Source: an uncultured bacterium (GTDB lineage Bacteria > Krumholzibacteriota > Krumholzibacteriia > LZORAL124-64-63). From it: DNA of 64,000 nt. A program made the translations under genes and the position numbers. Below are positions 24,526 through 46,616 of the stretch, in pieces. A model generated the notes under the pieces. It saw only the letters and a list, made by a program, of their open reading frames with translations. It ran no database searches and had not been told where the DNA came from. Positions within the stretch are counted from its first letter, which is position 1; each line of letters starts with the position of its first letter. The stretch is taken from assembly GCA_963727525.1 (NCBI GenBank), contig CAVSGO010000006.1, positions 224,001 to 288,000 of the forward strand, written 5' to 3'.

Positions 24526-24801
24526 CTTGAGCGTAGTGCGATCACCTGACGCGATGGACTCCGTTTCAAGAGGCAACCTAAAGATCTCCCCGGATTGACA
24601 GACACCGGGGTTCATCTCAAACTGTACCGGCAGTCTCTTATATCCGATCGCGACGTCATATCGACGGAGACAACATTTCGACGAACATACACGACTATCG
24701 CCCACTCCTCGGTACTTTGGCCGATACGCACCGCAAAGCCTCTTGGGCCTGAACGTCGCGATCCTCACTCGGGGCTGCTTTTTTCGACCATCATGGGAGG
24801 T

Positions 24802-25968
24802 ATGATCATGCGAATTCGTTTCATGTTGCTATTGATCGCAACCTTCGGGTTGTTGGCGATGACGGCGTACGCCGGCAAACCCGGTGACAGCGCCGTGACC
24901 TCGGTACCTTCGGACTACCCCTGCAACCAGCAAGGCGACGCGGGGCTGTGTCTACCACTCGACGCGAGCTGGGAAGTCGTCCAGTTCACCAATGGCGTCG
25001 CGGACTGCTACGAGAACGACGATGGTTCGTCCGTCATGTTGACGTTGCCGTTCTCTTTCGACCTCTTCGGTACGCCGCAGACCGACTTCTGGATCAACAA
25101 CAACGGCAACATCTCGTTCGATGGGCCCTACTTCACCTACACGCCGGAGGGATTCCCGGTCGCGAGCTTCCCCATGGTCGCACCGTTCTGGGGCGACGTG
25201 GATACGCGCTCACTACTCGATGGGGCTGGTGTGGTGTGGATGAAGATGGGTGCCAATTATCTGGCGGTCACCTGGGACCATGTCGGCTACTTCAGTTCAC
25301 ATACCGATCTGCAGAGCACGTTTCAGCTCATCATAAGCGACGGAACGTATGGGGGCATCGGGATTGGCAACAACGTATGCTTCTGCTACGCGGACATGCA
25401 GTGGACGACTGGCGATGCATCGGGTGGTGCCGGCGGCTTCGGCGGCTCACCGGCCACCGTCGGCGTGAACAAGGGTGACGGCGTAAACTACTTCAACGTG
25501 GGACGCTTCGATCACAGCGGCGGCGACTACGCCGGCCCCGATGGGATCAGCGGTGTCGACTGGCTCGACTTCCAGCAGATTTGCTTCAACGTCGGCGGCG
25601 ATATCAACCAGTGCCCGGTGGCCATCAACTTCCCGGCCGGCAACACGATCGTGATGACGGACGCCAACCCGACGTTGAATCTCAGCGTGGGCTTCATCGG
25701 ACCGGAAGCCGGCCAGACCGTGCACACGGTGGTCACCACCGGTGGCCTCGCCAACTTCGCCTACGTCAGCGTGGACGGCAACCCGTCGACGGTCACGATG
25801 ACGTTCACGCCAACCGCTGCTGAGATCGGCACTCACGTGATCCACTTCGCCGCGACGGACGATTATGATCCGCCGTGCACGACCGAGGTGGACCTGACGA
25901 TCATCGTCGAACAGAGTGTGCCGGCCGAGCAGAGATCCTGGGGCGACTTGAAGAGCATCTACCGCTAG
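24802..25968 (+). CDS. Secreted nidogen-like (NIDO) domain protein with Ig-like domain and C-terminal SWGDLKSIYR tag
   Basis: Signal peptide; NDDGSS, WINNNGNISF, MVAPFWGDVDTR, VTWDHVGYF, TFQLII, MQWTTGDASGG; GGAGG SD. Confidence 0.85.
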   Translation: MIMRIRFMLLLIATFGLLAMTAYAGKPGDSAVTSVPSDYPCNQQGDAGLCLPLDASWEVVQFTNGVADCYENDDGSSVMLTLPFSFDLFGTPQTDFWINNNGNISFDGPYFTYTPEGFPVASFPMVAPFWGDVDTRSLLDGAGVVWMKMGANYLAVTWDHVGYFSSHTDLQSTFQLIISDGTYGGIGIGNNVCFCYADMQWTTGDASGGAGGFGGSPATVGVNKGDGVNYFNVGRFDHSGGDYAGPDGISGVDWLDFQQICFNVGGDINQCPVAINFPAGNTIVMTDANPTLNLSVGFIGPEAGQTVHTVVTTGGLANFAYVSVDGNPSTVTMTFTPTAAEIGTHVIHFAATDDYDPPCTTEVDLTIIVEQSVPAEQRSWGDLKSIYR

Positions 25969-26000
25969 GCCGCAATTCCAGGTAATCGCCGCGGACCGAC

Positions 26001-26034
26001 GGCCGACCGAGGAGATGGGCGACCTCGGTCGGCC
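26001..26034. terminator. Hairpin between convergent genes
   Basis: GGCCGACCGAGG-10 nt loop-CCTCGGTCGGCC, 12-bp perfect stem; no U-tract. Confidence 0.5.
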
Positions 26035-26136
26035 CGCGCGGTGACCTGGCCTTCCCGAGCACCGACCCCGTGCGCGACGGCACCGACCCTGAGCCGCCGG
26101 GTCGAGGTGGGCTGCCGGGACTGACGGATCCTGCAA

Positions 26137-26652
26137 TCAGGATTTCGCGCACTTCCGCACCGTGTCCCAGGTGCGCGTCGTCTGATCCTTGCCGAACGTC
26201 GCGGCGATCATCTTCATGAACACGGGTCCGCGGGGGCTCTTCACGTAGGCGGTGAAGATCTCGCATCCTTCCACCGCGAGGATGCGGGCGCCGTCTTTCT
26301 CGCCAGGCAGGCGCGGCGTGGGGCTCACGGGCTTGCGCGTGAACGTCACCACTCTCTTCGCGTCCGGCGGTAGGTCGAAGCGCGCGAACGGATCGGCGGC
26401 GATGAGGCGCGTCAACATGTTGATCGAGCGCACGATCGTGAAGAACGACCGGCCCGCTTCCCGCGTGAGCGCGGTCTCGATCACGCTCTCGATTTTTGCA
26501 AGCGAGCGCATCGACGTCGAGAAGGCGACGTTGCCTGTCGCGAGCACCGTCTTGACGTCGGTGAAGCCCTCCGCCTCGATCCATCGTTTGAGATCCGGCA
26601 TCGCGAGATTGGTCGGACTCACCCCCCGCAGCAATGCCACGTAGCGTACCAT
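26137..26652 (-). CDS. DUF1697 domain protein
   Basis: RYVALLRGV, MPDLK, GFTDVKTVLATGNVAF, TTRTWDTVRK. Confidence 0.9.
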   Translation of the reverse strand: MVRYVALLRGVSPTNLAMPDLKRWIEAEGFTDVKTVLATGNVAFSTSMRSLAKIESVIETALTREAGRSFFTIVRSINMLTRLIAADPFARFDLPPDAKRVVTFTRKPVSPTPRLPGEKDGARILAVEGCEIFTAYVKSPRGPVFMKMIAATFGKDQTTRTWDTVRKCAKS

Positions 26653-26667
26653 GGATCAGCTCCCGGT

Positions 26668-27399
26668 CTAGAAACGTCCTTTGAGGACCAGTAAGGGTAG
26701 AGGCATGGCTTCGCGATTGCCGGCTCCGCCGGCGACGGCGCCCTCGCGTGCCACCGTGCGGCCAACGATCCAGCCGATCGTGGCGCCGGCGAGGACGTCG
26801 CTCAACCAATGCCGGGAAACCTCGATTCGCCCCATGCTCGTCACGCCCGCCAGCACGAGAGACAGGGCGGCCAGCCCATCGCCGCGACGACGTGTCAGCA
26901 CTGCGGCGGTCGCGAACGCCACGGCCGTGTGCCCCGAGGGAAACGCATAGGCGTCGCCATCGGGCCGCTCGCGGCGGACTGCGACCTTCAGCAAGCCCAC
27001 GGTGGTGGCGGTGAGGAGCTGCGCACGCGCCAGTGCGTAGCCGTCGCCGGCCAGTCGCGCGTCATTGCGGCTATTGCCGAGCGCCCACAGCGAGAGCGAC
27101 AGCGGCACCTGCACTCGTCCGTCGCCCCAGAGATTGCCCACGCGGGCCAGCGTCGGCCAGGGCCCGCCAGCACGAGCCAGGGTATCGCGCGCCTGGGCGT
27201 CGAGAAGGGAGCCGCCAAACGTCATGGCGGTACCGCCAAGCAGCCACAGGGCGTTCGCCGTGGTGGGCAAGGCCTGGATATCGTCGACCACGTCCGCCGG
27301 CATGTCGCCGGGATGCGGCAGGTCCGCGCCACGGGTCGGCGGCGCGAACGTTGCGATCGCGAGCAGCGCGATGAGTCCGGGAATCTGCGAGGTGCGCAT
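26668..27399 (-). CDS. PAP2 family phosphatase
   Basis: LKVAVRRERP, FPSGHT, GRIEVSRHWLSDV; N-terminal signal peptide. Confidence 0.88.
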   Translation of the reverse strand: MRTSQIPGLIALLAIATFAPPTRGADLPHPGDMPADVVDDIQALPTTANALWLLGGTAMTFGGSLLDAQARDTLARAGGPWPTLARVGNLWGDGRVQVPLSLSLWALGNSRNDARLAGDGYALARAQLLTATTVGLLKVAVRRERPDGDAYAFPSGHTAVAFATAAVLTRRRGDGLAALSLVLAGVTSMGRIEVSRHWLSDVLAGATIGWIVGRTVAREGAVAGGAGNREAMPLPLLVLKGRF

Positions 27400-27514
27400 G
27401 CCGGAAGTCTCGGCGCGCATCGGCGCGCGCGCCAGGGAAATCTGGCGTGGTTTCGGCACGGTGAGAACGAGCATACCTTCTTCCAGTGCGTCGTCACGAC
27501 CCGGAGGCAGTCCT

Positions 27515-27907
27515 GTGAATGAGATTTCCGTCTCGACCAGATCCCACGACCAGCTCGTGAACATCACGGCCGAAATCAATGCCGCCGTCGCCGATCTCGG
27601 CGTGCGCGATGGGGCGGTGCTGGTGCACGTGCCGCACACCACGGCCGCCGTCACCATCAATGAGGGCGCCGACCCGGATGTGCCACGCGACCTCTTGCGC
27701 CGCCTCGATGCCCTGGTGCCGTGGGACGATCCCGACGACCGCCACGGGGAGGGCAACAGCGCCGCGCATCTCAAGTCGTCGCTGGTCGGCTGCAACCAGC
27801 TGGTGCCTGTCGCCGCGGGCAAGCTCGAGCTGGGCACCTGGCAGGCCGTGTGGTTCTGCGAGTTCGACGGGCCGCGGCAGCGGCGGGTGCAGGTGTTGGC
27901 GATCTAG
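27515..27907 (+). CDS. YjbQ/UPF0047 family protein
   Basis: HVPHTTAAVTINEGADPDV, HGEGNSAAHLKS, LGTWQAVWFCEFDGPR; GGAGG SD and GTG start. Confidence 0.92.
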   Translation: MNEISVSTRSHDQLVNITAEINAAVADLGVRDGAVLVHVPHTTAAVTINEGADPDVPRDLLRRLDALVPWDDPDDRHGEGNSAAHLKSSLVGCNQLVPVAAGKLELGTWQAVWFCEFDGPRQRRVQVLAI

Positions 27908-28017
27908 CTGGGTGTTGGTCGAGGGACCGCTGTTCCGGGGGGTTCCCCAGCGAGGCCATCTCATGATATCCTCTTGCCTGCGAATCTCGTTCCCGCCCAC
28001 AGCCCCGAGGACCTCCC

Positions 28018-29817
28018 ATGCCCATCCCCATGCATCGCCGGACGACGTTCGTCATCGCTCTCGTGTCTGTTGTGATTCTCGCCGCCGCCGCCCGGGCCGA
28101 TCTGGCGCCCATCGAGCTGGACGGTTTCTTCGACGACTGGGCGGCCGTGGCGCCGGTCGCGGTCGACGCCATCGGTGATGGCGGCACGGTCGACTTCGGC
28201 GCGGTCTCGGTGGCCAACGACCAGGACTATCTCACCATCCGGTTCGCCGTGACCGGCAACGTGCAGCCCGACGAGCAGGAAGACATGCGGCTGTACCTCG
28301 ACACCGACATGAATGCGTCCACCGGCATCGCGTACGGCGATCTCGGGGCGGAGCTGGTGTGGCAGTTCGGGAACCGTGTCGGCACGTTCACGCGAGGGGG
28401 GACGGCCACGATCCACCATGCCGACATCGGCCTCATGATGGGACCGACGGTGAGCAACGACGAGTTCGAGATCGCCCTGCGTCGCGACGCTGTGCCGGCC
28501 AACGGGCAGGCCCTGTTCCCGGGCGACACCGTGCGCTTCCTGCTGCGAGACATGACGTCCGGGGACCGCGTGCCCGACGTGGGCAGCCTCACCTACACCT
28601 TCGCCGCCGGCAACGACGCCGCGCCCACACTCGCGCTGGGACGCGCGAGCGCGTCGCACCTGCGCCTGGCGAGCTGGAACGTGCAGAACGACGGGCTCTT
28701 CGCCGGCGGCGCCGCCGAGGCGGCTCAGGGGCGGCTGCTCGGCGTCATCGACCCCGACATGCTCATCATCTGCGAGGTGTGGAACCACTCGGCAGCGCAG
28801 GTGGCCGCCAGGGTCGAGCAGCATCTGCCCAGCGGTCCGGGAGAGCAGTGGTACGCCCTGGGCATCGACGGCGGCAACGTGATCTGCAGCCGGTTCCCCA
28901 TCCTGCAGACCTGGGCTGTGAACCCCGGCTACCGGATCACCGCTGCGCTCATCGACCTGCCAGACACCGACACCGATCTGCTGCTCTTCGCCTGTCACTG
29001 GCGCTGCTGCACGGCCGACGCCGATCGGCAGAAGGAGGCGGATTCGATCATCGGCTTCCTGCGCGACGCGCGCTCGCCCGGCGGTCTCATCGATCTGGCG
29101 CCGGATACCCCCTTCCTCCTGGCCGGCGATCTGAACCTGGTGGGGTGGCGCCAGCAGCTCGACACCATTCTCACGGGCGACATCATCAACGAGGGGCTCT
29201 ACGGGCCCGACTCGCCTCCCGACTGGGACGGCAGCGACTTCGCCATCGTCCACTCCCGCCAGCTCGACGGCCGCGCCAGTTACACGTGGCGCGACGACGG
29301 CAGCTCCTACTATCCCGGCATGCTCGACTGGATGCTCTACTCCGGCAGCGTCCTCGACGTGCACAACAACTTCATCCTCGAGACCCGCACGATGACCGCC
29401 GCGACGCTCGCGGCTACCGGCCTGCAGGCCACCGACAGCCCCACCGCGAGCGACCACGACCCGCGCGTCGCCGATTTCTCGCTCAGGAACGCCGGCACCG
29501 GCGTACCCGACGTCGGGATGACGACCGCCCTCGCCCACCTGCGTCCCGCGGCGCCGAACCCGTTCAACCCCTCCACGGACCTGCGCTTCACCCTCGACCG
29601 CGCCGGACGCGTGGAGCTGTCGATATTCGACGCGCGCGGCCGCCGGGTCCGGAGCTTCCCGGACACCCACTACGCCGCCGGCGATCATGCCCGGCGCTGG
29701 AACGGCCGCGACGACACCGGACGCAAGGTCGCTTCGGGCGTCTACGAGGTACGCATGGTGGCACATCTCGGCCGACGAACCGAAACAGGATCGGCATCGA
29801 TCACGCTCGTGCAGTAG
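28018..29817 (+). CDS. Secreted endonuclease/exonuclease/phosphatase family protein with FlgD-Ig C-terminal domain
   Basis: SWNV, ICE, LAGDLN, LDWMLY, ASDHDP; C-terminal PNPFNPST...WNGRDDTGRKVASGVY. Confidence 0.85.
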   Translation: MPIPMHRRTTFVIALVSVVILAAAARADLAPIELDGFFDDWAAVAPVAVDAIGDGGTVDFGAVSVANDQDYLTIRFAVTGNVQPDEQEDMRLYLDTDMNASTGIAYGDLGAELVWQFGNRVGTFTRGGTATIHHADIGLMMGPTVSNDEFEIALRRDAVPANGQALFPGDTVRFLLRDMTSGDRVPDVGSLTYTFAAGNDAAPTLALGRASASHLRLASWNVQNDGLFAGGAAEAAQGRLLGVIDPDMLIICEVWNHSAAQVAARVEQHLPSGPGEQWYALGIDGGNVICSRFPILQTWAVNPGYRITAALIDLPDTDTDLLLFACHWRCCTADADRQKEADSIIGFLRDARSPGGLIDLAPDTPFLLAGDLNLVGWRQQLDTILTGDIINEGLYGPDSPPDWDGSDFAIVHSRQLDGRASYTWRDDGSSYYPGMLDWMLYSGSVLDVHNNFILETRTMTAATLAATGLQATDSPTASDHDPRVADFSLRNAGTGVPDVGMTTALAHLRPAAPNPFNPSTDLRFTLDRAGRVELSIFDARGRRVRSFPDTHYAAGDHARRWNGRDDTGRKVASGVYEVRMVAHLGRRTETGSASITLVQ

Positions 29818-29881
29818 AGAGGCGCCCCTCGACACGCATCTCGGGAGATGTCGACCTGGCGAACCTGCGGACCACCGTGCG

Positions 29882-31456
29882 TCACCGCATGAGCACGAGC
29901 CTCGCCACGCCACGCTGCTGGCCGACCAGCGCTCGTGCCAGGTAGATGCCGCTGGGGACCGTGCGGCCGGTGTCGTCGCAGCCGTCCCAGACGAGGTCCT
30001 GGCGTCCGGCCGCCAGATCGCCGGTGAAGAGATTGCGCACGAGACGCCCATCGGCGCCATAGAGCGACACCTGCGCGTGCCCGGTGCGCGGCAACGCGAG
30101 CGAGAGAGTGCACTGCGGATTGAACGGGTTCGGGAAGGCGTTCAGCGCGAGGGCGCCGGCGGACGGCGCGGCGTCGATCGCCGTCGCCACGTCCATCTCG
30201 GCGTAGTAGAGATCGCCGCCGTTGCCGAACTGGTTCGCATGCACATGCTTGCCGCAGGCCGCCAGGCGCCGCGTACCCGCGGGGCCGACGGTGGTGAGAT
30301 CGACGTCGTAGATGGAGCCGACGGTGTTGACCGCGAAGTACGGGTGCGGATCGGAGGCCTGGAAGACGTTCACCTCGGCGTTGACGTCGGCCTCGTCCCC
30401 CCAGCTACCCACGACCGCGAACGCGCCGTCATTGGCGCTGGCCACGGGCAGATCCTGATAGCTCCCGGCCGACACCGGGAAGAGGTACGTCCAGGTCGTC
30501 GCGCCGCTCACGCAGTCGTACCACTCGATGCGGTTGTGATCGTAGCTCGTGGTGTACCAGCCGGTGATCAGGCCGCCGTTGTCGGCGACCGCGCACGTGC
30601 CCAGGTACCAGCCGGAGCCCGCCACGGTGAAGCGCGGGCGATAGGTCTGGCCGTCGCCTTCCCACACGTAGAGCGTCGACCAACCCGAGGCGAGCCAGTG
30701 GCCGTCCGGCGAGATGGACAGGGGATCGGCGCTCGCGCCCACGCCGCCCGACCATAGCGGCACCCCGGTCGCCGTGGTGAGAACCATGACGGTGGCGCCG
30801 AGGCGCACCGCGATGAGGCCGCCGTCGGCGGTCAGGCGCAGCCCGCGCGCGAAGAGATTGGTCGCCGTCTGATAGCTCGACAGTGGTGTGCCCGTCGCGG
30901 CGGCGAAGCCGCGGATCGTGCAATCGGTGGTCGTGTTGACGGCGAGGGCCACGACGCTGCCGTCGTCCGAGACCCGCAAGCAACCCGCCGGCGCCGTGCA
31001 ATTGTCGTAGTCTTTACGCCAGAGCTCGGTCTGCGACGCCGCGTCGTAAGCGTGGAGCCGGACACCCTGCGTGGACGGGATCGTCTCCACGATCGCCATC
31101 ACGCCGGCGCGGCCGTGGGCCTGGTTCTCGCCGCCGGTGAAGGTCCAGGTGGGCACACCGCCGGACCCTGCCTCGAAGTAGTTGGCCACGCACGCCGCGC
31201 CTTGAATGCTCCCGGCAACGACCTGCCCGTCCCACGCCGCGCAGCTCACGTAGATATTGCCCGGGATGGTCTGCTGCCACAGGACCCCGTCGCGCGTGGT
31301 TGCCGGTACGGCTTGACCATCGCCCGCGATGGCGTCGCGCACGACCTGCGTTCCCGCATCATCCTGGACGAATATCTGGCGACTGAGCTGGGGTGGATCG
31401 GCCGAGACCGAGAGAGCGACGAGCGAGACGAGAACGACGATCGCGCTGATCCTCAT
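29882..31456 (-). CDS. Secreted WD40/PQQ-like beta-propeller protein with FlgD-Ig C-terminal domain
   Basis: Signal peptide; SDDG/TADG/SPDG repeats; C-terminal FPNPFNP...WDGCDDTGRTVPSGIY. Confidence 0.8.
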   Translation of the reverse strand: MRISAIVVLVSLVALSVSADPPQLSRQIFVQDDAGTQVVRDAIAGDGQAVPATTRDGVLWQQTIPGNIYVSCAAWDGQVVAGSIQGAACVANYFEAGSGGVPTWTFTGGENQAHGRAGVMAIVETIPSTQGVRLHAYDAASQTELWRKDYDNCTAPAGCLRVSDDGSVVALAVNTTTDCTIRGFAAATGTPLSSYQTATNLFARGLRLTADGGLIAVRLGATVMVLTTATGVPLWSGGVGASADPLSISPDGHWLASGWSTLYVWEGDGQTYRPRFTVAGSGWYLGTCAVADNGGLITGWYTTSYDHNRIEWYDCVSGATTWTYLFPVSAGSYQDLPVASANDGAFAVVGSWGDEADVNAEVNVFQASDPHPYFAVNTVGSIYDVDLTTVGPAGTRRLAACGKHVHANQFGNGGDLYYAEMDVATAIDAAPSAGALALNAFPNPFNPQCTLSLALPRTGHAQVSLYGADGRLVRNLFTGDLAAGRQDLVWDGCDDTGRTVPSGIYLARALVGQQRGVARLVLMR

Positions 31457-31762
31457 CGTGAACTCCCTTGAATGATGAACTTCTAGCACACCGGGCGGCA
31501 GAGGAGCCCGAGCGGTCGCGATGCGGCCGATCCTACCACCGAAGCGCCCGGGATTCCAGAGCCGTCCCATCGCCTGGTTGCGGGCGGACATCGATCCCGA
31601 AGCCCAGGACCACAGCCGCCCTCCGATGCCATGCGACCGATACCTGGAGCTGGAATGACCAGCGCATGATGATGCCTTACGTTCACCCCCTCGGAATCTC
31701 GCCTGACATGAGTTCTGGAATATTCCATTGCCTTTTCGTCTCAATTATGGTCAAATTGTAGG

Positions 31763-33481
31763 ATGAATGACTTCAAAAGATTTCGACGAATTGCGCTACC
31801 CTGCGCGCTTGCCTTGCTCCCCTTGGTCTCGTTCCCCGTAGCCGCGAAGGATCGGGACCAGGTCCCGGCGAGGTTTCAGAACGAGGTCCCTGACGACCCC
31901 TACATTGCATCTCCCCTTGCGGAACATCCGAGGTCTCCCGCCACGCGATTCTCCCGAGATTCATTCTTCGTCGTCCAGGTGAACGTCGATGCTCTCGGGC
32001 AGAACATCGTGGGCGACGCCGCCAATGAGCCGTCCCTTGCCGTGGATCCCACCGATCCGGACAAGATGGTGATCGGCTGGCGGCAGTTTGACACCGTCGC
32101 GAGCAATTTCCGCCAGGCAGGGAACGCTTATAGCACGGACGGAGGCCAGACCTGGACATTCCCCGGGGTGATCGAGCCGGGGGTCTTTCGCTCCGATCCC
32201 GTCCTGGATTCGGACTCGGAGGGAAGGATCTACTACAACAGCCTCACCCTCGAGGGCAGCGACTACCTCTGCGACGTCTTCCGTTCCACTGAAGCCGGCA
32301 TGCCCTGGGATTCCGGAACTTCGGCCCACGGAGGCGACAAGCAGTGGATGGTGATCGACAAGACCGGTGGCGTCGGCGATGGTAATATCTACGCTTTCTG
32401 GACCAGCTTCTACAGCAGTTGCATCCCCGGCTTTTTCACGCGGTCCACGGATGGCGGCGACTCGTACGAATCCTGCACCCAGATTCCCGATGAGCCATAC
32501 TGGGGTTCGCTCGCGGTGGCGCCCGGTAGCGGATTTAATCCGAGCGGCACGCTCTACGTCGTCGGAGCGTACAATAACGATTTCGTCGTGGCGCGCTCCA
32601 CCAACGCCCGCTATGCCGGGCAAGCGATCGTGTGGGACCTGTCGACCGTCGTCAGTCTCGGCGGCTACGCCGATTCATTTGGCGGCCCCAATCCCGAGGG
32701 CCTGCTCGGACAGGCAGGCATCGCCACCATTCCCAGCGCGAGTCCCCAGGGCCACGCGGTCTGCGTGCTGTGCTCGGTGAACCCGCCGGGGTCCGACCCA
32801 CTGGACGTGATGTTCACTCGCAGCACCGATGGCGGGGCCACCTGGAGTACACCGGTCCGCGTGAACGACGATTCGGGCAACGCATGGCAGTGGCTCGGGA
32901 CGATGTCGACCAGCCCCTCCGGGCGGATCGATGCCGTCTGGCTCGACACGCGCGACAATCCGGGCACCTATCTGTCTTCCCTCTACTACTCCTATTCTAC
33001 TGACAGTGGGGTGACCTGGTCCGCGAACGAGCGGCTGTCGGATGCGTTCAATCCGCAGATCGGATATCCGAACCAGGACAAGATGGGCGACTACTTCCAG
33101 ATGGTTTCCGACGACGCGGGTTTTCGTCTGGCCTGGGCTGCGACTTTCAACGGCGAAGAGGACGTCTACTTCGGCCACAAGACCCTGGGAGTCACCGCGG
33201 CCGGTGAGACGCGCCCCGCGTCGCTCGTCCTCATGGAGGCCGACCCGAACCCGTTCAACTCGAGCACCACGATCCGCTACGACATTCCCCGCGACGCCTT
33301 CGTCACCCTGTCGGTCTACGACATGCGCGGGCGGAAGATCGCCGCGCTGGTATCGAGCGAACAGCCGGCGGGATCACACGAGGCGCGTTTCGACGATCGA
33401 GCCCTCGCCAGCGGTGTCTACTTCTGCCGCCTGAGCGCGGGCGAGTCCCACGGCGCGAAGAAGCTCCTGATCGTGAAGTAG
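31763..33481 (+). CDS. Secreted BNR/Asp-box (sialidase-like) protein with T9SS-type C-terminal domain
   Basis: Repeats YSTDGGQTW, RSTDGGDSY, RSTDGGATW, YSTDSGVTW; GDKQW; GDY; C-terminal PNPFNSSTTIRY...LASGVYFCRL...KKLLIVK. Confidence 0.85.
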   Translation: MNDFKRFRRIALPCALALLPLVSFPVAAKDRDQVPARFQNEVPDDPYIASPLAEHPRSPATRFSRDSFFVVQVNVDALGQNIVGDAANEPSLAVDPTDPDKMVIGWRQFDTVASNFRQAGNAYSTDGGQTWTFPGVIEPGVFRSDPVLDSDSEGRIYYNSLTLEGSDYLCDVFRSTEAGMPWDSGTSAHGGDKQWMVIDKTGGVGDGNIYAFWTSFYSSCIPGFFTRSTDGGDSYESCTQIPDEPYWGSLAVAPGSGFNPSGTLYVVGAYNNDFVVARSTNARYAGQAIVWDLSTVVSLGGYADSFGGPNPEGLLGQAGIATIPSASPQGHAVCVLCSVNPPGSDPLDVMFTRSTDGGATWSTPVRVNDDSGNAWQWLGTMSTSPSGRIDAVWLDTRDNPGTYLSSLYYSYSTDSGVTWSANERLSDAFNPQIGYPNQDKMGDYFQMVSDDAGFRLAWAATFNGEEDVYFGHKTLGVTAAGETRPASLVLMEADPNPFNSSTTIRYDIPRDAFVTLSVYDMRGRKIAALVSSEQPAGSHEARFDDRALASGVYFCRLSAGESHGAKKLLIVK

Positions 33482-33577
33482 TCGCGGGCGCAGGTGCTGA
33501 CGGTAGGGCAGGTGATCCGTCCTTCCAGCACGAAGGATGGGTCATAGACGCCGCAGTGGCGACTCGGGAGGCGGCCA

Positions 33578-35421: not shown

Positions 35422-35578
35422 GCAAGGCTCCTTGCCGGAATCCCTTCACGACCGGCCACCACCGCGAAGATATGCACTGATGGACCGCTCGACAATGCAA
35501 GGTCACGGCCTGGGCGGACCTGTTGCCTGGACATCTTTGCAAGTGTTGTTGAATACGACGTTGTCGAATATCCGCCGG

Positions 35579-37408: not shown

Positions 37409-37546
37409 GGTCGCGAAACCCTCTCGCCGACGCGGAGAATTCCGCCACGCGCGTTCGCGCGCGGCGGGCATTCAGCCTAAGCGCGGACGATCGATTCGGC
37501 CAGTGGAGGCGCGCCCGCCACCCGTCGAGGCCGGCCAATCGTCGAG

Positions 37547-37960
37547 CTAGTCGCGCAGTTTCCACACGTCCAGCACGATGACCCACATTCGCGTTTTCAC
37601 GCGGTCCAGGTTCCTCGCCCGGGGACGCGTGGCCCTGTCGTGGCGCACCTGTACCGCGCCTGCGATCTGGTCCACGCGCGGCTGTAGGCGAGGTCCAGCG
37701 ACCACCCGGCGGTGACCCGACGCCCGCATGCCGCACCCGTTCCCAGATATCCGGGCTGCAGACCGGCTCTCCCTGCTCATTTGTGTATCACAAGTTGCTC
37801 ATGTCCCGATACGTGTCGAGTGGCGACCAGCCGTACTGCAGACCGATACCACCGTACGCGACGGTCAACTCGCGAGCGTCAAGGAAGATGTCGTTTGCGA
37901 GACCGACGGCGAGCTGGCTATGGAAGTCGTGATAGCCGACGCCGGTCGGCGAGGTTGTCG
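37547..37960 (-). pseudogene. Degraded outer-membrane beta-barrel gene remnant, possibly PorV/PorQ-like
   Basis: HSQLAVGLANDIFL...YGGIGLQYG...DMSNL*YTNEQGEPV...WER..AGVG with in-frame stop and frameshifts; resemblance from memory only. Confidence 0.35.
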
Positions 37961-38142
37961 ACGTTGCCGCCGGTCGATAGGCTCGTATGCAGGCCGCGCC
38001 GCGGGGCCAAGGCGACGATGCGTGCATCATGGGCATGTTGTCACGGATGTCTCCGCGTGGATACGAGTGGCCGACCCCGGCGACCTTGCGTAGGAGTGTT
38101 GTTTGAGAGACCGACCCTGCCGCCGCCACCAGGAGACCGCTC

Positions 38143-39210
38143 ATGAGCCTTTCCACCGATCAGATCCGGGAGTTGCTGGGCGATCAGGCCGATGCCCTGC
38201 TGAACTTCGCCGAGCCGAAGATCGACCACGCCCTGCTCCACCAGCCCGGTCCGGATTTCATCGACCGAGTCTGGCGCGACTCCGATCGAACCGTGCCCGT
38301 GCTGCGCAGCCTGCAGGGACTGTGGGACCATGGCCGGCTCGGGGGGACGGGCTACCTCTCGATCCTGCCGGTGGATCAGGGTATCGAGCATTCGGCCGGC
38401 GCGAGCTTCGCACCCAATCCCATCTACTTCGACCCGGCGAAGATCGTGGAACTGGCGCTCGAGGCGGGGTGCAACGCCGTGGCCTCCACGCTCGGCGTGC
38501 TCGGCGCGGTTGCGCGACGCTACGCGCATCGCATCCCGTTCATCGTGAAGCTCAACCACAACGAGCTGCTGACGTACCCAAATACCTACGATCAGATCCC
38601 CTTCGCACGGGTCGAGCAGGCGTTCGACATGGGAGCGGTCGCCGTGGGTGCAACGATCTATTTCGGCAGCGAGGAATCGGGGCGGCAGATCCAGGAGGTC
38701 AGCGAGGCCTTCGAGCACGCGCACGAGCTGGGTCTGGCGACCGTCCTGTGGTGCTACACGCGCAACGCGGACTTCAAGAAAGGCGGTGTCGACTACCACG
38801 CCGCCACCGATCTGACAGGTCAGGCGAACCACCTGGGCGTGACGATCCAGGCCGATATCATCAAGCAGAAGCTCCCCGCGCATAACAAGCCGGGCTTCAA
38901 GAATATCGGCTTCGGCAAGACCGATGACCGCATCTACCGGGACCTCGCGAGCGACCACCCGATCGACATGTGCCGTTACCAGGTTGCCAACTGCTACATG
39001 GGCCGCTGTGGCCTGATCAACTCCGGCGGCGCCAGTAGCGGCGCCAGCGACACCGCCGACGCCGTCCTCACGGCCGTGGTCAACAAGCGAGCCGGCGGCA
39101 TGGGACTGATCATGGGCCGCAAGGCATTCCAACGTCCCATGCCGGACGGCGTGGCGATCATCCAGGCCGTGCAGGATGTCTATCGCGACGGGAATATTAC
39201 CGTGGCGTGA
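38143..39210 (+). CDS. fbaB: Class I fructose-bisphosphate aldolase (FbaB/DhnA)
   Basis: [62 protein letters not shown]. Confidence 0.96.
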
Positions 39211-39285
39211 TGGCGAGTCGTGTGGTTGAGATTCAAGGGGTGGAGCATCGACGGACTCGCCATCCCGATCACCTTCACTCGCCGA

Positions 39286-39758
39286 CTAGGGCTTCTCGTC
39301 GGAAATATTAGGCTCGTCGTTGCTCTTGTAGCGGTGGACGATCGTGAATTCGCCGTCGCTCTGGTCCGAGATGACGTCGCCGTTCGCGAAGACGGTCGTG
39401 ACTTGCACGTAGCAGTGCTCATCCGTCCAGTTTCCCGGGTCGATCGTCACATGGAGGAAGCCATTCCCGTTCGCTTCGACGGATGCGCCGGCCTCGAGCA
39501 CCCATAGTACGCCATCGGACAAGAGGTAGACGTTCGACGTGCTCAGGTCCACGTCGGTACCCGCCACGTGCCAGAGTATGTTGAAGCCGGTCGGATTGGT
39601 GTAGGACTCGCCGCCGTTCGGGGTGACGACCGTCACACCGTTCCCGGTGAGCGGAAGCGCGTTCGCGCCATCGTCGCTCGCGACGGATGCCGCCAGGGCT
39701 GTACTTGCGACGTCAACATGGCGAGCATGGACACAAGGATCGTTGCGGATCGCTTCAT
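39286..39758 (-). pseudogene. Secreted Ig-like protein (PNGGE motif) with a 1-nt frameshift in the signal peptide
   Basis: AAGGAG SD, then MKRSATILVSMLAMLT, frame change ~39710, then ASTALAAS...VTVVTPNGGE...ISDQSDGEFTI. Confidence 0.65.
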
Positions 39759-39933
39759 CGATGGTTGCTCCTTGAAGGAGGTGGGAAGTGGACAGCGACA
39801 CCTCCAGAACGTCAGGGGTGGCGTGGATTCAAGGCGGAAACGGCGGACTCCGTCTCGGGCCATCTTCTCCCTGTCGCGCCGCCCGACTTTGGCTATGTTT
39901 GGCCGCAACCGGGACGAGCCCAAGGAGATGAGC

Positions 39934-40797
39934 ATGAGCGCGACGCTGTCCGACCTCACGGGTGTGAGTTACGCCGACCTGACGACTGCTTTCAACCAGA
40001 TCTTCGCCGACTACAGCCTCACGTCCGAACGCAAGGACGAGACCTGGCTGCGCAACCGATTGATCAAGAATGCCTACTCGGCGGAGTGCAGTGTCGGTGC
40101 CTATATCGAGGGGCGACTCGTCGGGTACATGCTCAATGGGGTGGCCGACTGGCGCGGTGATCGCATCGGCTTCGCGGCGGCCGTGGGCATCGTGCCGCGG
40201 TACCGGGGCCAGGGCATCGCCGGGCAGATGTTCGCGTTCGTGGAGCCGCACCTGCGGGAGCATTCGGTGCAGCACCACCTGCTCGAGGTGGTCGCCACGA
40301 ATCAGCCGGCCGTCGACGCCTACGAGAAGGCGGGCTTTGCGATCAGCCGCGAATTCGCGTGCTTCGAGCTGGCGCTGCCGCGCGAGCGGCCGGGCGGCCC
40401 GTCCGATCCGGGACTCTTCGTCATGGGCAAGGAGGCGCTCGAGCCCTTCGAGGATCAACGGAGCTGGGTGCCGTCCTGGGAGAACAGTTTCGCCTCGATC
40501 CGGCGCATCCCCGATCAGGTCTTCATCATGGCGGCCATCGAGGACAACCGGCCTGCCGGTCTGCTCGTGTACTATCCCACCCTCAACTGGTTGATGAGCA
40601 TCATCGTACGCCGCGAGTACCGGGGGCGAGGCGTGGGCAACCGGCTCATGCAGGAACTGCTACGCCGCCTGCCGGCGTCTCACGAGCGGATCCGGGCGCT
40701 CAACTGCCCACGCGACGATAAGGGTCTGATCGGGTTCTTCGAGCGGCTGGGGTTCGTGGAGTTCGCCAGCCAGTACGAGATGACGCGCGCGCTCTAG
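39934..40797 (+). CDS. Tandem GNAT family N-acetyltransferase
   Basis: AFNQIFADY; two acetyl-CoA motifs (PRYRGQGIA, REYRGRGVG); LEVVATNQPA, YEKAGF; AAGGAG SD. Confidence 0.9.
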   Translation: MSATLSDLTGVSYADLTTAFNQIFADYSLTSERKDETWLRNRLIKNAYSAECSVGAYIEGRLVGYMLNGVADWRGDRIGFAAAVGIVPRYRGQGIAGQMFAFVEPHLREHSVQHHLLEVVATNQPAVDAYEKAGFAISREFACFELALPRERPGGPSDPGLFVMGKEALEPFEDQRSWVPSWENSFASIRRIPDQVFIMAAIEDNRPAGLLVYYPTLNWLMSIIVRREYRGRGVGNRLMQELLRRLPASHERIRALNCPRDDKGLIGFFERLGFVEFASQYEMTRAL

Positions 40798-40890
40798 GCC
40801 GGCTACGCTTTTTCAGCTAAGTGATACCACGCGTTCTGCCGATCCTCCCGGGGAATCCTGAACCGCCCGGGGACGGACAAGGAGCGTGGT

Positions 40891-43800
40891 GTGCGTATTG
40901 CCCGAGTGCTATCGAGACATGTTATTGCCTGTATGGCAATAAGTTATATCATTATCGCGACGCCCGGACTGGCGCTCGACCCCGAGCGCGACGTCCGCCA
41001 GTACGGTGTCGATGTCTGGACGTCTCTCGACGGGCTGCCCCAGAACTCCATCCAGGCCATCTGCCAGACTGCCGACGGCTATCTGTGGCTGGGCACGCAG
41101 GAGGGACTGGTTCGGTTCGACGGCGTCCGCTTCCTGGTCTTCGACGAGCGCAACACGCCGGCCATCAGCCACAACGATATCCAGTCCCTGGCCAAGACGG
41201 CCGACGGCAGCCTCTGGATCGCCACCTACGGTGGCGGTCTCGTACGTCGCCAGGGCGATACGTTCACCGCAATCGACGTGCCGCACTCGCTCGATGCCAC
41301 CGCTCACGTCATGACGGTGCGCACGGATGCGGACGACCACCTGTGGATCGGCACGCTCGACGAGGGGCTCTTCCTCTGGGACCACGGCCGCTGCGTGCCG
41401 ATCGACATGCCCGCCGAGTACGCCGACTCCGGTATCCTCGCGGAGGCCACGTCGTCCGACGGCACGCTGTGGGTGGGAACCAATCGCGGCCTCGTACGGC
41501 GCACGCCGCGCGGCTGGGATACCGTGACCCTGCCCGGGTACCAGTACCAGGGCGCTGTGTACGCCCTACACGCCGATGCCGACGGGACGATCTGGATCGG
41601 CACCATGGGGCCACTGCTGGCATGGCGCGATGGCACCTTCACCGCCTACCGGCCGGGCGACGACCGCAGCTGGGACTACGTGCGCGTGATCCGGCGCGAC
41701 AGAGAGGGCACGCTCTGGGTCGGCACGTATGGCGGGGGCCTCCTGCGCCTCCAGGGTGGCAAGCTCGCCGGTATCTCCAGCCACGACCTCCTGAACGATG
41801 ACTCGGTCCACGCGCTGATCGAGGATCGCGAGGGCTCGCTCTGGGTGGGCACCTTCCACGGCGGCGTGACGCGACTGCACGACACTCCCTTCGCTGCCCT
41901 CGACACCACGACGGGCCTGCCCACGGATCACGTCCGCGTGGTATGCCGGGCTCGCGACGGATCGCTCTGGCTCGGACTCGATTCGGCCGGACTCGCCCAT
42001 GTCACCGGCGACACCATCGGCATCTACACGACGGAAGACGGCCTTCCCGGCAGCACCGTGCATGCCATCTGCGAGAGCCGCGACGGCAGTCTGTGGCTGG
42101 GGACCGATCGTGGCATCAGCCATCTGGAGCACGGCGTCTTCACCAACACGAGTACCGAGAACGGCCTCGCGCACGACGCGGTGCGCGCTGTCTATGAGGA
42201 TAGCCGCGGCTGGCTCTGGGTCGGGACCAAGGGCGGCGGCGTGACCCGTATGATCGACGGCCGCCTCGAGACCTTCGACGTGGAGCACGGCCTGCCATCG
42301 AACATCGTGCGCTGGATCCACGAGGATCGATCCGGTGACCTGTGGTTCGCGACCGAGTCGGGACTCGTGGTGTGGCGCGACGGCCGTTTCATCACCGTCG
42401 GCGCCGACCAGGGCCTCGCGCAGAGCTATGTCATGCATACCACAGTGGACCCGGACGGTACGCAATGGATCGCCACCTACGGCGACGGCCTCGTACGCTG
42501 GCGTGACGGCGTCGCCACCTATTTGGGGGCGGAGGCGGGCCTGTACGAGACAACCCTCTACTCCGTCACCAGCGATCGGCACGGAAGACTCTGGTTGCCC
42601 TGCAATCGCGGCATCTTCGGCATCGCGAGGCAAGACATCGATCGCTACCTGAAGGGCGAGATCCCGCGGATCCCGACCATCGTCTTCGGGCCGGAGAACG
42701 GCTTCCCCGGAACCGAGTGCAATGGCGGCTCGCAGCCCTCCACGTGGACGCAGCCCGACGGCCGGATCTGGTACACGAGCAACGGCGGCGCGGTGCTCTT
42801 CGATCCGAGCGAGGTGCAGCCCGACCCCATCGCGCCGACCGTGGTGATCGAGGACGTGATCATCGACCGCGTGCCGCGCAGCGCGGTCCAGCTGACGCAC
42901 GTGCCGCCCGGGCGCCGCGATGTCGAGATTCGTTACACGGGTCTCAGCTTCCGCAATCCCCGCGGCGTCCGTTTCCGGTACAAGCTCGAGGGGTTCGATA
43001 CCGACTGGTTCGAGGCCGGTACGCGTCGCGCCGCGTACTACACGAACCTGCCCCCGGGCGACTTCGCATTCCGCGTCTTGGCTTGCAACGCCGACGGCAT
43101 GTGGAACGACATCGGGGCTACCCTGCACTTCGAGCTTGAACCGCGCCTTTACGAGACGGCGCTGTTCAAGAGCCTTTGCCTCGCCGTCGTCGTGATCGGC
43201 TTCATCATGACGTGGCGCTGGCGCGACCGTCAGCTCCAGGTGCGCCAGGACCAGCTCCAGGTGCTGGTGCACGACAAGACGCGGGAGCTCAACGCCGCGA
43301 AGCAGGCGGCCGACATGGCGAACGCCGCCAAGAGCGTGTTCCTGGCGAACATGAGTCACGAGATCCGCACACCCATGAACGCCGTCATCGGCATGACGGA
43401 GCTGATGCGCACGACGGAGCTGGCGCCCGATCAGCGCGAATCGCTGGATATCGTGAGCAGCTCGGCCCGCGCCCTGCTCGATTTGCTGAACGATATTCTT
43501 GATTTCACCAAGATCGAAGCCGAGAAGCTGGAACTCGCGCCGCACGTGTTCGAGGTGCGCGACTTCCTCGACGAGGTCATCCGCACCGTGGCCCTGCGCG
43601 CCGAGGAGAAGGGCCTCGACCTCACCTGCGCCATCGCGCACGACGTGCCGGTACTCCTGATGGGCGACTCCCTACGCCTGCGCCAGATCGTCATGAACCT
43701 CGTGGGCAATGCGATCAAGTTCACCGAGCAAGGAAGCGTGACGGTCACGGTGCGCAATGCCGCGCGCGAGGGCGACGGCGTGCTGCTCGAGTGCCAGGTG

Positions 43801-44892
43801 GTCGACACCGGCGTGGGCCTCTCGCCGGCCGCGCAGGCGCGCATCTTCCATCCTTTCACCCAGGCCGACGCCTCCGTCACGCGCCGACACGGCGGCACCG
43901 GGCTCGGTCTCGCCATCTGCGCCCGGCTGGTCGAACTGTTCGGCGGCACGATCGGCGTGACCAGCGAGGCTGGGCGAGGGTCGTGTTTCACCTTCACCGC
44001 CCGTTTCGCGGTGGCCACGGAGGGCGCCGTCGTGGCCGAGCCCGCAGACCCCGACGAACTGGTCGGCCATCGGGTACTCGTCGTCGATAGCAGCGCGAAC
44101 CATCGACGCCGCGTCACCAAGATTTGCGAGCGCTGGGGAATGGCCGTCGCCGCGGCGCCGACGCCACAGGATGCCCCGAACATGGCCGAGGCGGCCGCGC
44201 TCGTGGGTGAGCCGTACTCGATGGTCATCTTCGAGTATGCGCCGCCTGACCACGACCTGGCGGCCATCTGCCACGAGTGGAGCGGCGGCGACTCGCGGCC
44301 CGACGCCATTCCCGTGCTGGTGACGGCCCGCATGAGCCTGATCGGCCAGGCCCATGGCTGTGCCCACGCCGCGATCCGCGGGCACCTCGTGCGACCCGTC
44401 CGCCAGAAGGACCTGCTCGACGCCGTACGCTCCGTCCTCGGGTCCGATCCGAGTGAAGTCGAGGCGCCTGGCCTGCCGTTGCCGCGGATCAGCCGCGGAC
44501 TCTCGATTCTCGTGGCCGAGGACAACCCGGTGAACCAGCTCGTGGCGCGGCGCCTGCTCGAGCGCGACGGGCACGCCGTGACCATGGTCGCCAACGGACG
44601 CGAGGCCCTGACCGCCCTCGAGAACACGCACTTCGATCTCGTGTTCATGGACGTGCAGATGCCCGAGCTGGACGGCCTCGAGGCGATCCGTATCTGGCGA
44701 GACCGCGAGCAGCAGCGAGATGTCGCGCACCCGGCGCCCATCGTCGCGCTCACGGCCCACGCCATGACGGGCGACCGCGATCGCTGCCTCGCAGCCGGCG
44801 CCGACGACTACCTCACCAAGCCGATCGACGCGGCCGCCCTCAAGGCCATCATCGACCGCCAAGCCTCCGTGCTTCTCGACGGTTCTGCCTAG
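40891..44892 (+). CDS. Hybrid sensor histidine kinase/response regulator with Reg_prop beta-propellers and Y_Y_Y domain
   Basis: Many DxxGxLWxGT repeats; YKLEGFD...[38 protein letters not shown]; degenerate first receiver and intact second receiver (FMDVQMP...KP). Confidence 0.95.
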
Positions 44893-45174
44893 AAGAATGT
44901 TGATGGCACCGGATAGCTGACAATTCCGATACAGATCACATGGAACATCGTAATTTATGGGCCGTCTTCCTCGACATGTGGCCATTTTCCAACCTTCACG
45001 GCCCCATCAACAATCTTCGAGGCACAATACAGAGTTCATTAATTTTACAAAAAGAGTATAATCATGATAATTTCTTGTTGCTGAACCATTCGATGCGTGA
45101 TAATATTGGTGCTGATTTTGACGCAAGACTCCCTCGCCACGGCGCGGGATAGAGACAACTCGGAGGAACACCCC

Positions 45175-45372
45175 ATGGACACCAAGCAGACGTACAACAG
45201 TCCTCAGATCACGACCGTGCCCCTGCATGTCGGCATTTTCGGCGACTACGGCAATGGCGGCGGTGGCGGTGGCGGTGGCGGCGGCCACCATCACGGCGGT
45301 GGCGGTCACCACGGCGGTGGCTGGCACGGGATCGGTGGCGGCTCGGGTCTGTTCGACGGATCGTCGGACTGA
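45175..45372 (+). CDS. Small Gly/His-rich peptide (65 aa) with YxxP leader-like motif
   Basis: GGAGGA SD; MDTKQTYNSPQITTVPLHVGIFGDYGNG10HHHGGGGHHGGGWHGIGGGSGLFDGSSD; downstream hairpin. Confidence 0.72.
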   Translation: MDTKQTYNSPQITTVPLHVGIFGDYGNGGGGGGGGGGHHHGGGGHHGGGWHGIGGGSGLFDGSSD

Positions 45373-45396
45373 GCCTCGCAAGAACCACGCGGTAGG

Positions 45397-45425
45397 AGGC
45401 GGTCGATCACGCCGATCGACCGCCT
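45397..45425 (+). terminator. Stem-loop after the small peptide gene
   Basis: AGGCGGTCGATC-ACGCC-GATCGACCGCCT, 12-bp perfect stem. Confidence 0.65.
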
Positions 45426-45451
45426 TCGCATGTGTGTGGTAGGATGAGACG

Positions 45452-46003
45452 GTGGCTATCGTTCTCAGTATCCTGCTCGGCATTGGACTCGCGGCGGCGG
45501 TGGGGTTGCGGGTGTTCGTGCCGTTCCTGCTGGTCGCCCTCGTGGCCCACGGCGGGCACGTTCCCCTCGCCCCGCATTTCGCCTGGCTGGCCACACGCCC
45601 GGCGCTCGTGATGCTCGCCGTCGCCACGGTGGCGGAGGTCGCCGCTTACCACGTGCCCGGACTCGATCATGCGCTCGACGTGATCGCGGGCCCGGCGGCG
45701 GTCATCGGCGGTATACTGCTCGTGGCGGCCACCGCGGTCCCCCTTGATCCGGCCATCCGCTGGACGCTCGCCATCATCGCGGGCGGCGGGGTGGCGGGCC
45801 TGGTGCAGACCGGGACGGCTGGCCTGCGCGTGGGCTCCACGATCACCACGGGCGGTTTCGCCAACCCGTTGCTGGCGACCGCGGAAACCGGTGGCGCGGT
45901 GGTGCTCACGGGCCTGGCGCTGGTGATGCCGGTGCTGGTTCTGGTGGCGGTGGTGCCGATCGTGGTGCTCGTGCGCCGCCGACGTCACCGGCGGCCGGCG
46001 TGA
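45452..46003 (+). CDS. DUF4126 domain membrane protein
   Basis: GIGLAAAVGLRVFVP, EVAAYHVPGLDHALD, IIAGGG, TGGFANPLLATAE. Confidence 0.88.
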   Translation: MAIVLSILLGIGLAAAVGLRVFVPFLLVALVAHGGHVPLAPHFAWLATRPALVMLAVATVAEVAAYHVPGLDHALDVIAGPAAVIGGILLVAATAVPLDPAIRWTLAIIAGGGVAGLVQTGTAGLRVGSTITTGGFANPLLATAETGGAVVLTGLALVMPVLVLVAVVPIVVLVRRRRHRRPA

Positions 46004-46091
46004 GTTTGAATAGCGAAACCGGTCATATTTGCTTTTGTATGCAGTCACCGCCGCACTTTCAATCCAAGGATTGATTCCTGGGAGGTTCACC

Positions 46092-46616
46092 ATGGTCACT
46101 TGGTCACGAACTCTGATTTTCGTTCTCGTCGTGCTGGCTTTCGCCGCGCCGGCTCTGGCGGACGGCACCCCGATTCCCGAGGAATGGCTCGGAATCTGGG
46201 AGCAGACGGTCAACATCTACGACTGCGACACCAACGATCTCCTCTTCACGACCACACAGCTCGATACCTTATGCCCCGGAGCCGTCTTCGAGGATCCGGA
46301 CGGCGGGGGCACCACGCTCAACTGCACGACGACCGCCGATGGCTCGTCCTACACGACCCACTGCGAAGGCTCGTCCGAGGTTTTCCCGGGCTGCACCTCG
46401 TCCTTCGTCTACGACGTGACGGGTACCCTTTCGGGCGACTCCTATTCGGCGACCTCGGTCACCAACATCAGTTTCACCGGCGACTGCCAGGATCTGCCCG
46501 ATCAGTGCCAGCGCACCGAACTGAGCGGCACCCGACTGGGCCCGGCGCCGGAGCCGTGCGGGAGTTCCCCGGTGGAACACCAGTCCTGGGGTTCCATCAA
46601 GTCCCTGTATCGCTGA
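46092..46616 (+). CDS. Secreted 8-Cys beta-rich protein with C-terminal SWGSIKSLYR tag
   Basis: GGAGG SD; signal peptide ending APALA; 8 Cys; terminal motif shared with 24802-25968. Confidence 0.8.
   Translation: MVTWSRTLIFVLVVLAFAAPALADGTPIPEEWLGIWEQTVNIYDCDTNDLLFTTTQLDTLCPGAVFEDPDGGGTTLNCTTTADGSSYTTHCEGSSEVFPGCTSSFVYDVTGTLSGDSYSATSVTNISFTGDCQDLPDQCQRTELSGTRLGPAPEPCGSSPVEHQSWGSIKSLYR

Follow-up and report, generated by a model that had tools for sequence, protein, structure and literature searches.

Why should two unrelated secreted proteins end in nearly the same ten residues? The question is raised by a NIDO-domain protein and a small Cys-rich protein that are both encoded in a 64,000-nucleotide stretch of DNA (hereafter the window; G000:C6:224001-288000) from an uncultured bacterium of the phylum Krumholzibacteriota, whose genome (G000) comprises 4.66 Mb in 8 contigs with 65–67% G+C. 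A sequence-only reading of the window had proposed that this common ending is a sorting or anchoring signal, and we find both tails in frame directly before the stop codon, SWGDLKSIYR at window positions 25936-25965 in the NIDO protein and SWGSIKSLYR at 46584-46613 in the Cys-rich protein. The conserved tail is longer than these ten residues, as it begins approximately 7 residues earlier (SVPAEQR- in the NIDO protein and SSPVEHQ- in the Cys-rich protein). Because this tag is present in none of the family libraries that we searched and its genes lie beside the gene of a sortase-like protease, it looks like an undescribed cell-surface sorting signal.

A recurrent tag at protein C-termini

The tag, which spans ∼17 residues, has the consensus V-[AP]-[VT]-E-[PA]-x-[TS]-[WF]-[GS]-x-[VI]-K-[SA]-[LM]-[FY]-(R)-stop. 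When the six-frame translation of the 4.66-Mb genome was searched with the regular expression WG.[ILVMF][KR]..[YFW], there were 74 matches, 56 of which fall within 3 residues of a stop (2 of these are spurious and run across the stop); 55 open frames of at least 60 amino acids have the motif as their end. The residue counts among these 55 frames are V39-[A22/P16]-[V21/T18]-E37-[P19/A14/S9]-x-[T25/S16]-W-G-[A/S]-[V36/I13/L6]-K54-[S29/A19]-L41-[F32/Y21]. Tags continue for 0 to 5 residues beyond the aromatic position; one extra residue follows in 43 of the 55 tags, and R is found in 29. A profile built from the 55 frames and compared to our own, crude set of 3330 genes yielded 74 best matches (36.0 to 5.8 bits), each ending no more than 5 residues from the C-terminus, and the best internal match, at 5.4 bits, is below all 74 of these. 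The profile also picked up variants with W-S and F-G. The combined lists hold 86 reading frames, two of which are exact duplicates of each other located at contig ends, and the tag is present on ∼2% of the proteome.

The recurrence of the tag is far beyond chance. The corresponding DNA pattern with its stop codon has 41 matches in G000, but the reversed pattern has 0 in G000 and only 2 in all 208 genomes of the phylum that we searched. The conserved unit is the peptide rather than a DNA element, since synonymous positions differ between copies. Neither Pfam nor NCBIfam holds a model for the tail in the 55 tagged proteins, the last 31 residues of 8 tagged proteins matched 0 families in these two libraries at E values up to 10, and no paper was found by motif strings in a search that left most subscription journals and supplements outside its reach. 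In keeping with the sequence-only reading, all of the best profile matches are thus C-terminal, and no model or paper that we found describes the motif; nor is it limited to a few proteins, being found on ∼86 proteins of this genome, phylum-wide, and in a second phylum.

The tag is carried by diverse proteins, most of which begin with an apparent signal peptide. Pfam families of at least 10 different kinds were found in 25 of the 55 tagged frames and none in the other 30; these are Beta_helix (10), CHRD (3), LTD (2), PPC (2), NIDO, Calx-beta, DUF7450, Temptin_C and others, some of them below cut-off, and NCBIfam adds a spondin-like domain (NF038123). No Pfam match to the cargo extends into the tag. 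The small Cys-rich protein of the window has no family in either library, both of which were scanned. A crude classification assigned starts resembling signal peptides to 59 of 75 tagged proteins and to 891 of the 3056 remaining ones (odds ratio 9, P = 3e-18). The 16 tagged proteins without such a call are mostly frames called from too far upstream, among them the NIDO protein, whose open frame starts at 24595, upstream of the ATG that we chose at 24793. None of the 75 has a lipobox. The tag is short and amphipathic, the last 30 residues of tagged proteins are not hydrophobic (median best 15-residue hydropathy 0.59), and we found no membrane helix at their ends. The description of a modular C-terminal tag, without a membrane segment, on unrelated signal-peptide proteins therefore stands, as do the expected enrichment of signal peptides and diversity of cargo.

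The tag is found throughout the window's phylum. The pattern with stop codon is present in 201 of 208 genomes, with up to 68 matches each, and the stop-less pattern in 120 of 120 sampled genomes. The genomes with 0 matches to the former carry PorU, many proteins with a type IX secretion system (T9SS) C-terminal domain, and tags that end directly at [FY]-stop; these were missed because such endings lie outside the pattern. In the second phylum, the tag is present in 8 of 8 genomes with 23–51 matches each, compared to 0–1 for reversed-pattern controls. The supposition that the signal is lineage-specific thus has to be widened to include more than one phylum. When bacteria and archaea were scanned at one genome for each of 185,579 species, at least 135 stretches matched, and all 80 loci inspected among these are in-frame tails. 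Taken at face value, depositor labels would place the tag in many phyla; we rejected this distribution, since the labels disagree with the phylum grouping, and consider two phyla verified. The phylum of G208, which includes G212 and has its matches at the same loci as G001, G003, G005 and G016, is the window's own; records labelled Fibrobacteraceae and Latescibacterota thus fall in it, and a record labelled Gemmatimonadetes groups with a genome labelled Eisenbacteria. A genome labelled Zixibacteria has 2 tag matches and no match at E 1e-20 to the C25 peptidase described below.

Three short frames (114, 83 and 55 amino acids) at C7:2315950-2329488, near a gene for a large protein with a T9SS C-terminal domain, have near-identical tagged tails (...GVIGAWPV.CGVV.VETT.WGA.KAMF.) and lack signal peptides; they resemble pieces of genes or copies of a cassette. 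A tagged beta-helix gene occurs in two identical copies close to contig ends (C7:5925-7094 and C8:263359-264528), probably as an assembly repeat.

Exchange with the type IX C-terminal domain

The tag alternates with the C-terminal domain (CTD) of the T9SS on homologous cargo. Our own profile of the FlgD-like type-A CTD (...PNPFNP...GVY.YRL...RKM.LVK) matched 199 proteins with a median length of 760 amino acids, while the 75 tagged proteins have a median length of 258 amino acids; none of the 199 matches is to a tagged protein, and no protein carries both. Among 30 untagged paralogues of tagged cargo, whose endings were classed by eye from the C-termini, 18 have a CTD at the end and 6 have dockerin-like repeats. 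Several C-terminal modules, the tag among them, are therefore interchangeable, and the earlier proposal that it replaces the CTD is borne out to this extent.

Two small features point to a partial likeness between the two types of ending. The ending [LMIV][FYVLIW][KRQ]-stop is rare in general (37 of 3056 other proteins) but is present in 162 of 199 CTD proteins and in 43 of 75 tagged proteins. Similarly, [VI][ED][DEP] is found 9–22 residues before PNPFNP in 28 of 157 CTD proteins, compared to 7 and 2 of 157 for two control stretches. The resemblance between the linkers that precede tag and CTD, to which the sequence-only reading had pointed, is thus real but weak, and the linker motif and the similar ending lend weak support to a possible shared reading step. 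In G000, the tag profile found no internal copies ahead of CTDs. Some of the 37 proteins that have this ending and neither tag nor CTD may carry other unrecognized end signals.

The machinery of the T9SS is encoded in G000: SprA (480 bits), a canonical PorU (436.5 bits, above the cut-off of 420) with a PorV-like gene next to it, and further PorV/FadL-like barrels. PorU and many CTD proteins are found in 12 of 12 panel genomes, regardless of the number of tags. The exosortase family PF09721 has 0 matches in G000, which is 96.7% complete. The recurring neighbours of tagged genes encode CTD proteins, TolB-like proteins, an insertion sequence and kinases, and include no receptor or enzyme apart from the cluster described in the next section.

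A conserved cluster with a PorU-like C25 peptidase

The one conserved neighbour of tagged genes is a gene for a large Peptidase_C25 protein (cluster in Table 1). In 11 of 13 genomes (G000, G030, G071, G187, G144, G016, G017, G023, G053, G208 and G212), a C25 gene encoding 1360–1470 amino acids has immediately upstream of it, in the same orientation, 1–4 tandem tagged genes for proteins of ∼180–240 amino acids. The exceptions are G005, with none within 12 kb, and G008, in which the contig ends there (thus 11 of 12 assessable genomes). Although the stop-less pattern matches just twice in the whole of G016, three tagged genes are found at its C25 locus. In the second phylum, the C25 orthologue is present in 8 of 8 genomes, and 1–2 small tagged genes lie 4.7–10 kb upstream of it on the same strand in 5 of 5 assessable genomes. 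The intervening genes there are conserved and encode proteins of ∼400–850 amino acids, some of them TPR-like, together with a divergent FG-GAP-like gene; these may be further parts of the system.

The C25 protein of G000 (1458 amino acids) matches Pfam Peptidase_C25 (PF01364) with an E value of 1e-45 (157 bits, cut-off 23), and it ends in a type-A CTD. The only solved relative that we found is PorU (6za2). Both His981 and Cys1023 are retained without exception by 12 of 12 C25 orthologues, which are 20–42% identical to the 1458-residue protein, and these two residues align with the His and Cys of the PorU of the same genome; we take them to be the catalytic pair, as in clan CD peptidases. The 12 C25 proteins contain no convincing tag-like segment (best 2.0 bits). 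We found nothing relevant in the literature on PorU2 or PorU-like paralogues or on the T9SS in these phyla, within the same limits of search as above. The sequence-only reading had known of no processing enzyme for the tag; we likewise found none that has been characterized, but a candidate reader does exist in the PorU-like C25 protein encoded beside tagged genes.

The small tagged proteins of the cluster have a cohesin fold. Twenty of these proteins are ∼20% identical, and outside the signal peptide only the W and K of the tag are invariant. A structure model based on an alignment of 42 sequences (pLDDT 87.9, pTM 0.80), which supersedes a first model from 20 sequences that was too poor (pLDDT 59.8), has a beta core at residues 24-186, after which come a loose linker and, at 198-204, a helix. 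The core has the cohesin jelly-roll fold, as the 19 best matches among 48,161 chains are all cohesins (Z 8.0–11.7, 115–138 residues aligned, rmsd mostly 2.3–3.9 Å with one row at 6.5 Å), and Foldseek agrees. By sequence, neither of the two cluster proteins of G000 matched a family, Pfam Cohesin included, at E 0.01, and 18 homologues have no Pfam domain. The tag lies outside the folded core. The amphipathic mini-helix that had been predicted for it does appear in the model as the short helix 198-204, at a modest confidence (pLDDT ∼57–61). In the second phylum, the small tagged proteins have nothing but the tag in common with this cohesin-like family (18–23 aligned columns).

Possible partners of a cohesin are encoded in the same genome. 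The first gene of the cluster encodes a protein with a dockerin-like end; among the C-termini of its orthologues, 1 of 5 exceeds the cut-off of Dockerin_1 (PF00404; 29.3 versus 22.9 bits), and the G000 protein reaches E 0.8. Dockerin-like ends, a third class of C-terminal module beside tag and CTD, which consist of two repeats of D.DGD..VNL.DL..F and often finish in Cys-Pro, are present on at least 5 G000 proteins (Table 1). These are small secreted proteins, some of them paralogous to tagged cargo, and the combination of dockerin-like ends and cohesin-fold proteins suggests a cohesin-dockerin system in this phylum. Contigs from four RNA libraries (X1-X4) match the cohesin-like tagged gene (L209:11460-12256, where L209 is G000:C7:1676001-1693000) at 95–99% likeness, a hint that the gene is expressed, although DNA carry-over is possible; lack of cover by RNA contigs elsewhere is uninformative.

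Table 1. Coordinates of the tagged genes of the window, their CTD-encoding neighbours, the C25 cluster and the genes with dockerin-like ends (window positions, unless a contig of G000 is named)
Feature	Position	Strand	Remarks
Gene for NIDO-domain secreted protein	24793..25968	+	Frame from ATG before signal peptide MGGMIMRIRF...; Pfam NIDO E 5.2e-24
C-terminal tag of NIDO protein, SVPAEQRSWGDLKSIYR	25915..25965	+	Stop 25966-25968; tag profile 27.2 bits, reaching the C-terminus
Gene for small Cys-rich secreted protein	46071..46616	+	Signal peptide ...LIFVLVVLAFAAPALA; alternative ATG 46092
C-terminal tag of Cys-rich protein, SSPVEHQSWGSIKSLYR	46563..46613	+	Stop 46614-46616; tag profile 32.5 bits, reaching the C-terminus
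Neighbour gene, product ending in FlgD-like/T9SS type-A CTD	29882..31744	-	Own CTD profile
Second neighbour gene, product ending in T9SS type-A CTD	31763..33481	+	Own CTD profile
C25 cluster	C7:1681884-1689336	-	209-aa protein with dockerin-like end, tagged proteins of 216 and 231 aa, 1458-aa C25 protein, SpoIID/LytB, NagZ-like GH3
Gene with dockerin-like end	C7:1688707-1689336	-	Outside the window
Gene with dockerin-like end	C5:248620-249378		Outside the window
Gene with dockerin-like end	C7:114194-115516		Outside the window
Gene with dockerin-like end	C7:2278008-2278664		Outside the window
Gene with dockerin-like end	C4:16539-16916		Outside the window

An insertion-sequence-like gene for a 375-residue zinc-ribbon protein has ∼35 matches across G000 (C4:80839-81963, C6:128523-129647 and C5:672088-673212 among others), with ∼25 copies 95–99% identical; the copy in the window (7790-8833, C6:231790-232833) is only 52% identical. 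For eight of the 35, a tagged gene is no more than 2 kb away, which is somewhat above our chance expectation.

How the tag might be read

The reading that we prefer, to which we give an even chance, is that the tag stands in for the CTD as a sorting or anchoring signal and is read by a second sortase-like enzyme, the PorU-like C25 protein. Tagged cargo would first be exported into the periplasm by the Sec pathway, and the tag would serve, mostly on small proteins, instead of the CTD of 70–90 residues. This most likely reader itself carries a T9SS CTD and is for that reason expected at the cell surface. By analogy to PorU, the enzyme would cut within or before the tag, with the cargo then being either set free or attached to a glycolipid of the surface. 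As core clients it would have the cohesin-fold proteins encoded beside the enzyme, and these, once anchored, could hold the proteins with dockerin-like ends of the same genome. A bolder version, which we consider unlikely, is that this constitutes a type IX-like display branch without CTD, in which the 17-residue tail is enough for both passage and covalent anchoring by a dedicated PorU-like transpeptidase, and in which the anchored cohesins hold dockerin-bearing proteins in a cellulosome-style display on the Gram-negative outer membrane of at least two uncultured phyla.

Several observations weigh against the preferred reading. The 1458-residue protein scores 157.9 bits with the NCBIfam PorU model (NF033707), below its cut-off of 420, and 63.2 bits with the 'PorU2' model (NF052324), below its cut-off of 450, and the term 'sortase-like' is therefore drawn from homology and the catalytic pair only. 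The genomes with the cluster are not independent cases, because each phylum represents one inherited arrangement; a functional tie can still be argued from a gene order that is kept at such divergence. The pairing of tag and enzyme lacks a contrast between presence and absence, since both are found in every genome checked. The cluster lies among peptidoglycan genes, SpoIID/LytB and NagZ-like GH3 on one side and, in G000, MltG across from them, upstream of the gene with the dockerin-like end, and this setting could mean that its role is another one; around the cluster in relatives there are also gene starts that we take to be AnmK-like and MurQ-like. In an alignment of 20 cluster proteins, many of the relatives' tags stop at the aromatic residue without a basic one, and the likeness of the tag ending to that of the CTD is for this reason not universal. 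Finally, export, cleavage, attachment and the function of the tag are things that we infer, as is the route by which a 17-residue tail would cross the outer membrane. A complex prediction with the PorU-like core (residues 571-1370) and the tag peptide (163-206) gave a score of 0.00 in a run without controls, which counts neither way.

The same facts might be explained without a second enzyme, if the tail were a minimal T9SS signal, a CTD cut down to a sortase site and a mimic of the last strand, that is read by the ordinary machinery (PorV shuttle, SprA translocon and canonical PorU) and to which the neighbouring C25 gene is unrelated. SprA, PorU and a PorV-like protein are encoded in G000, the rare ending is frequent in both tags and CTDs, and the linker motif is enriched before CTDs. 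According to PMC11969387, working CTDs can be as short as 40–55 residues, and the last 22 residues of one cargo sufficed in work cited there, both of which suit such a signal. We nevertheless consider this explanation improbable, as the tag lacks the CTD motifs B and D, matches no CTD model even at E 10, and is modelled as a loose linker and helix rather than as strands. Moreover, the tagged genes cluster with the PorU-like paralogue and not with the PorU-PorV pair, and there are 0 Bacteroidota labels among the 80 loci listed of at least 135, labels that come from depositors and are unreliable.

Alternatively, the tail may not be cut at all, but may act as a non-covalent docking peptide, either as a helix or as an added strand on a scaffold, an outer-membrane barrel or an S-layer-like receptor. 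A short amphipathic tail with an invariant W and K that is flexible in the model would be suited to this purpose, several PorV/FadL-like barrels are encoded, and docking is evidently in use in this organism, because the same cargo families also carry dockerin-like ends. This alternative seems decidedly unlikely to us in that the recurring neighbours of tagged genes include no receptor candidate, and what is conserved next to them is not a binding module but a single enzyme whose catalytic pair is intact. A role in the periplasm, whether attachment to peptidoglycan by the invariant lysine or service as a tag for a tail-specific protease or for quality control, would fit the retention of K in 54 of 55 tags and the SpoIID/LytB, NagZ-like GH3 and MltG genes around the cluster, and Braun's lipoprotein is indeed joined to peptidoglycan through a C-terminal lysine. 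The lysine of the tag is four to five residues from the end rather than terminal, however, and 0 to 5 residues after the aromatic residue would poorly suit a PDZ protease that reads a free end. The cargo domains (beta-helix, CHRD, LTD, NIDO and cohesin) are of the surface-protein kind and their paralogues carry the T9SS CTD, such that we regard a periplasmic role as very improbable.

Among known systems, the closest parallel to the tag is the CTD/PorU pair of the T9SS itself (TIGR04183 or PF18962, FlgD_ig-like, for the signal; NF033707 and 6za2 for the enzyme). In both cases a C-terminal signal is found on diverse Sec-exported cargo, drawn from the same cargo families in the same genome, a C25 enzyme with His and Cys is encoded beside clients, and the rare ending of L, a hydrophobic and a basic residue before the stop is frequent. 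They differ in that the tag has 17 residues compared to 70–90 (40–55 in the shortest CTDs reported, PMC11969387), lacks the beta-sandwich, the motifs B and D and any model match, and is linked to a paralogue that scores below the PorU cut-off. The 'basic terminal domain' of Fibrobacter, which we considered as a possible equivalent, was rejected since it is ∼80 residues long (PMC4704652 and PMC3079729).

The parallel extends to short signals of other kinds. As with PEP-CTERM/exosortase, LPXTG, GlyGly-CTERM and MYXO-CTERM, dozens of unrelated exported proteins bear one short C-terminal signature, and the acidic-proline V-x-x-E-P of the tag recalls VPEP. Spondin-like (NF038123), LTD, CHRD and NIDO domains are cargo typical of PEP-CTERM and sortase-type systems. 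Unlike in PEP-CTERM, neither a membrane helix nor a basic cluster follows the motif of the tag, the tail ends 0–5 residues past the aromatic residue, and the genome encodes no match to exosortase. A further likeness is to cellulosome scaffoldins of the ScaE type: among the fold matches is 2zf9, which we take to be the cohesin of ScaE, a sortase-anchored scaffoldin of Ruminococcus flavefaciens. As proposed for the cluster, a cohesin-fold module there bears a short anchoring signal at its C-terminus, and a sortase-type enzyme as well as dockerin-bearing proteins are encoded alongside. Here, in contrast, we deal with a Gram-negative organism, the signal differs from LPXTG, the enzyme belongs to the C25 peptidases and not to the sortases, the cohesin is recognized by fold only, and Dockerin_1 is reached by just one of the five orthologue ends.

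The pairs of signal and enzyme known as LPXTG/sortase, PEP-CTERM/exosortase and CTD/PorU define how bacteria dress their surface, and each new pair of this kind opened a field and provided tools for protein display. With the tag recognized, many proteins now called hypothetical would be annotated anew as secreted or surface-located, and this in phyla for which metagenomes are the sole source. The tag is short enough for reporter tests, and a concrete candidate for its enzyme is at hand. The cluster in which tagged genes and this candidate are found together hints at cohesin-dockerin assemblies in Gram-negative bacteria.

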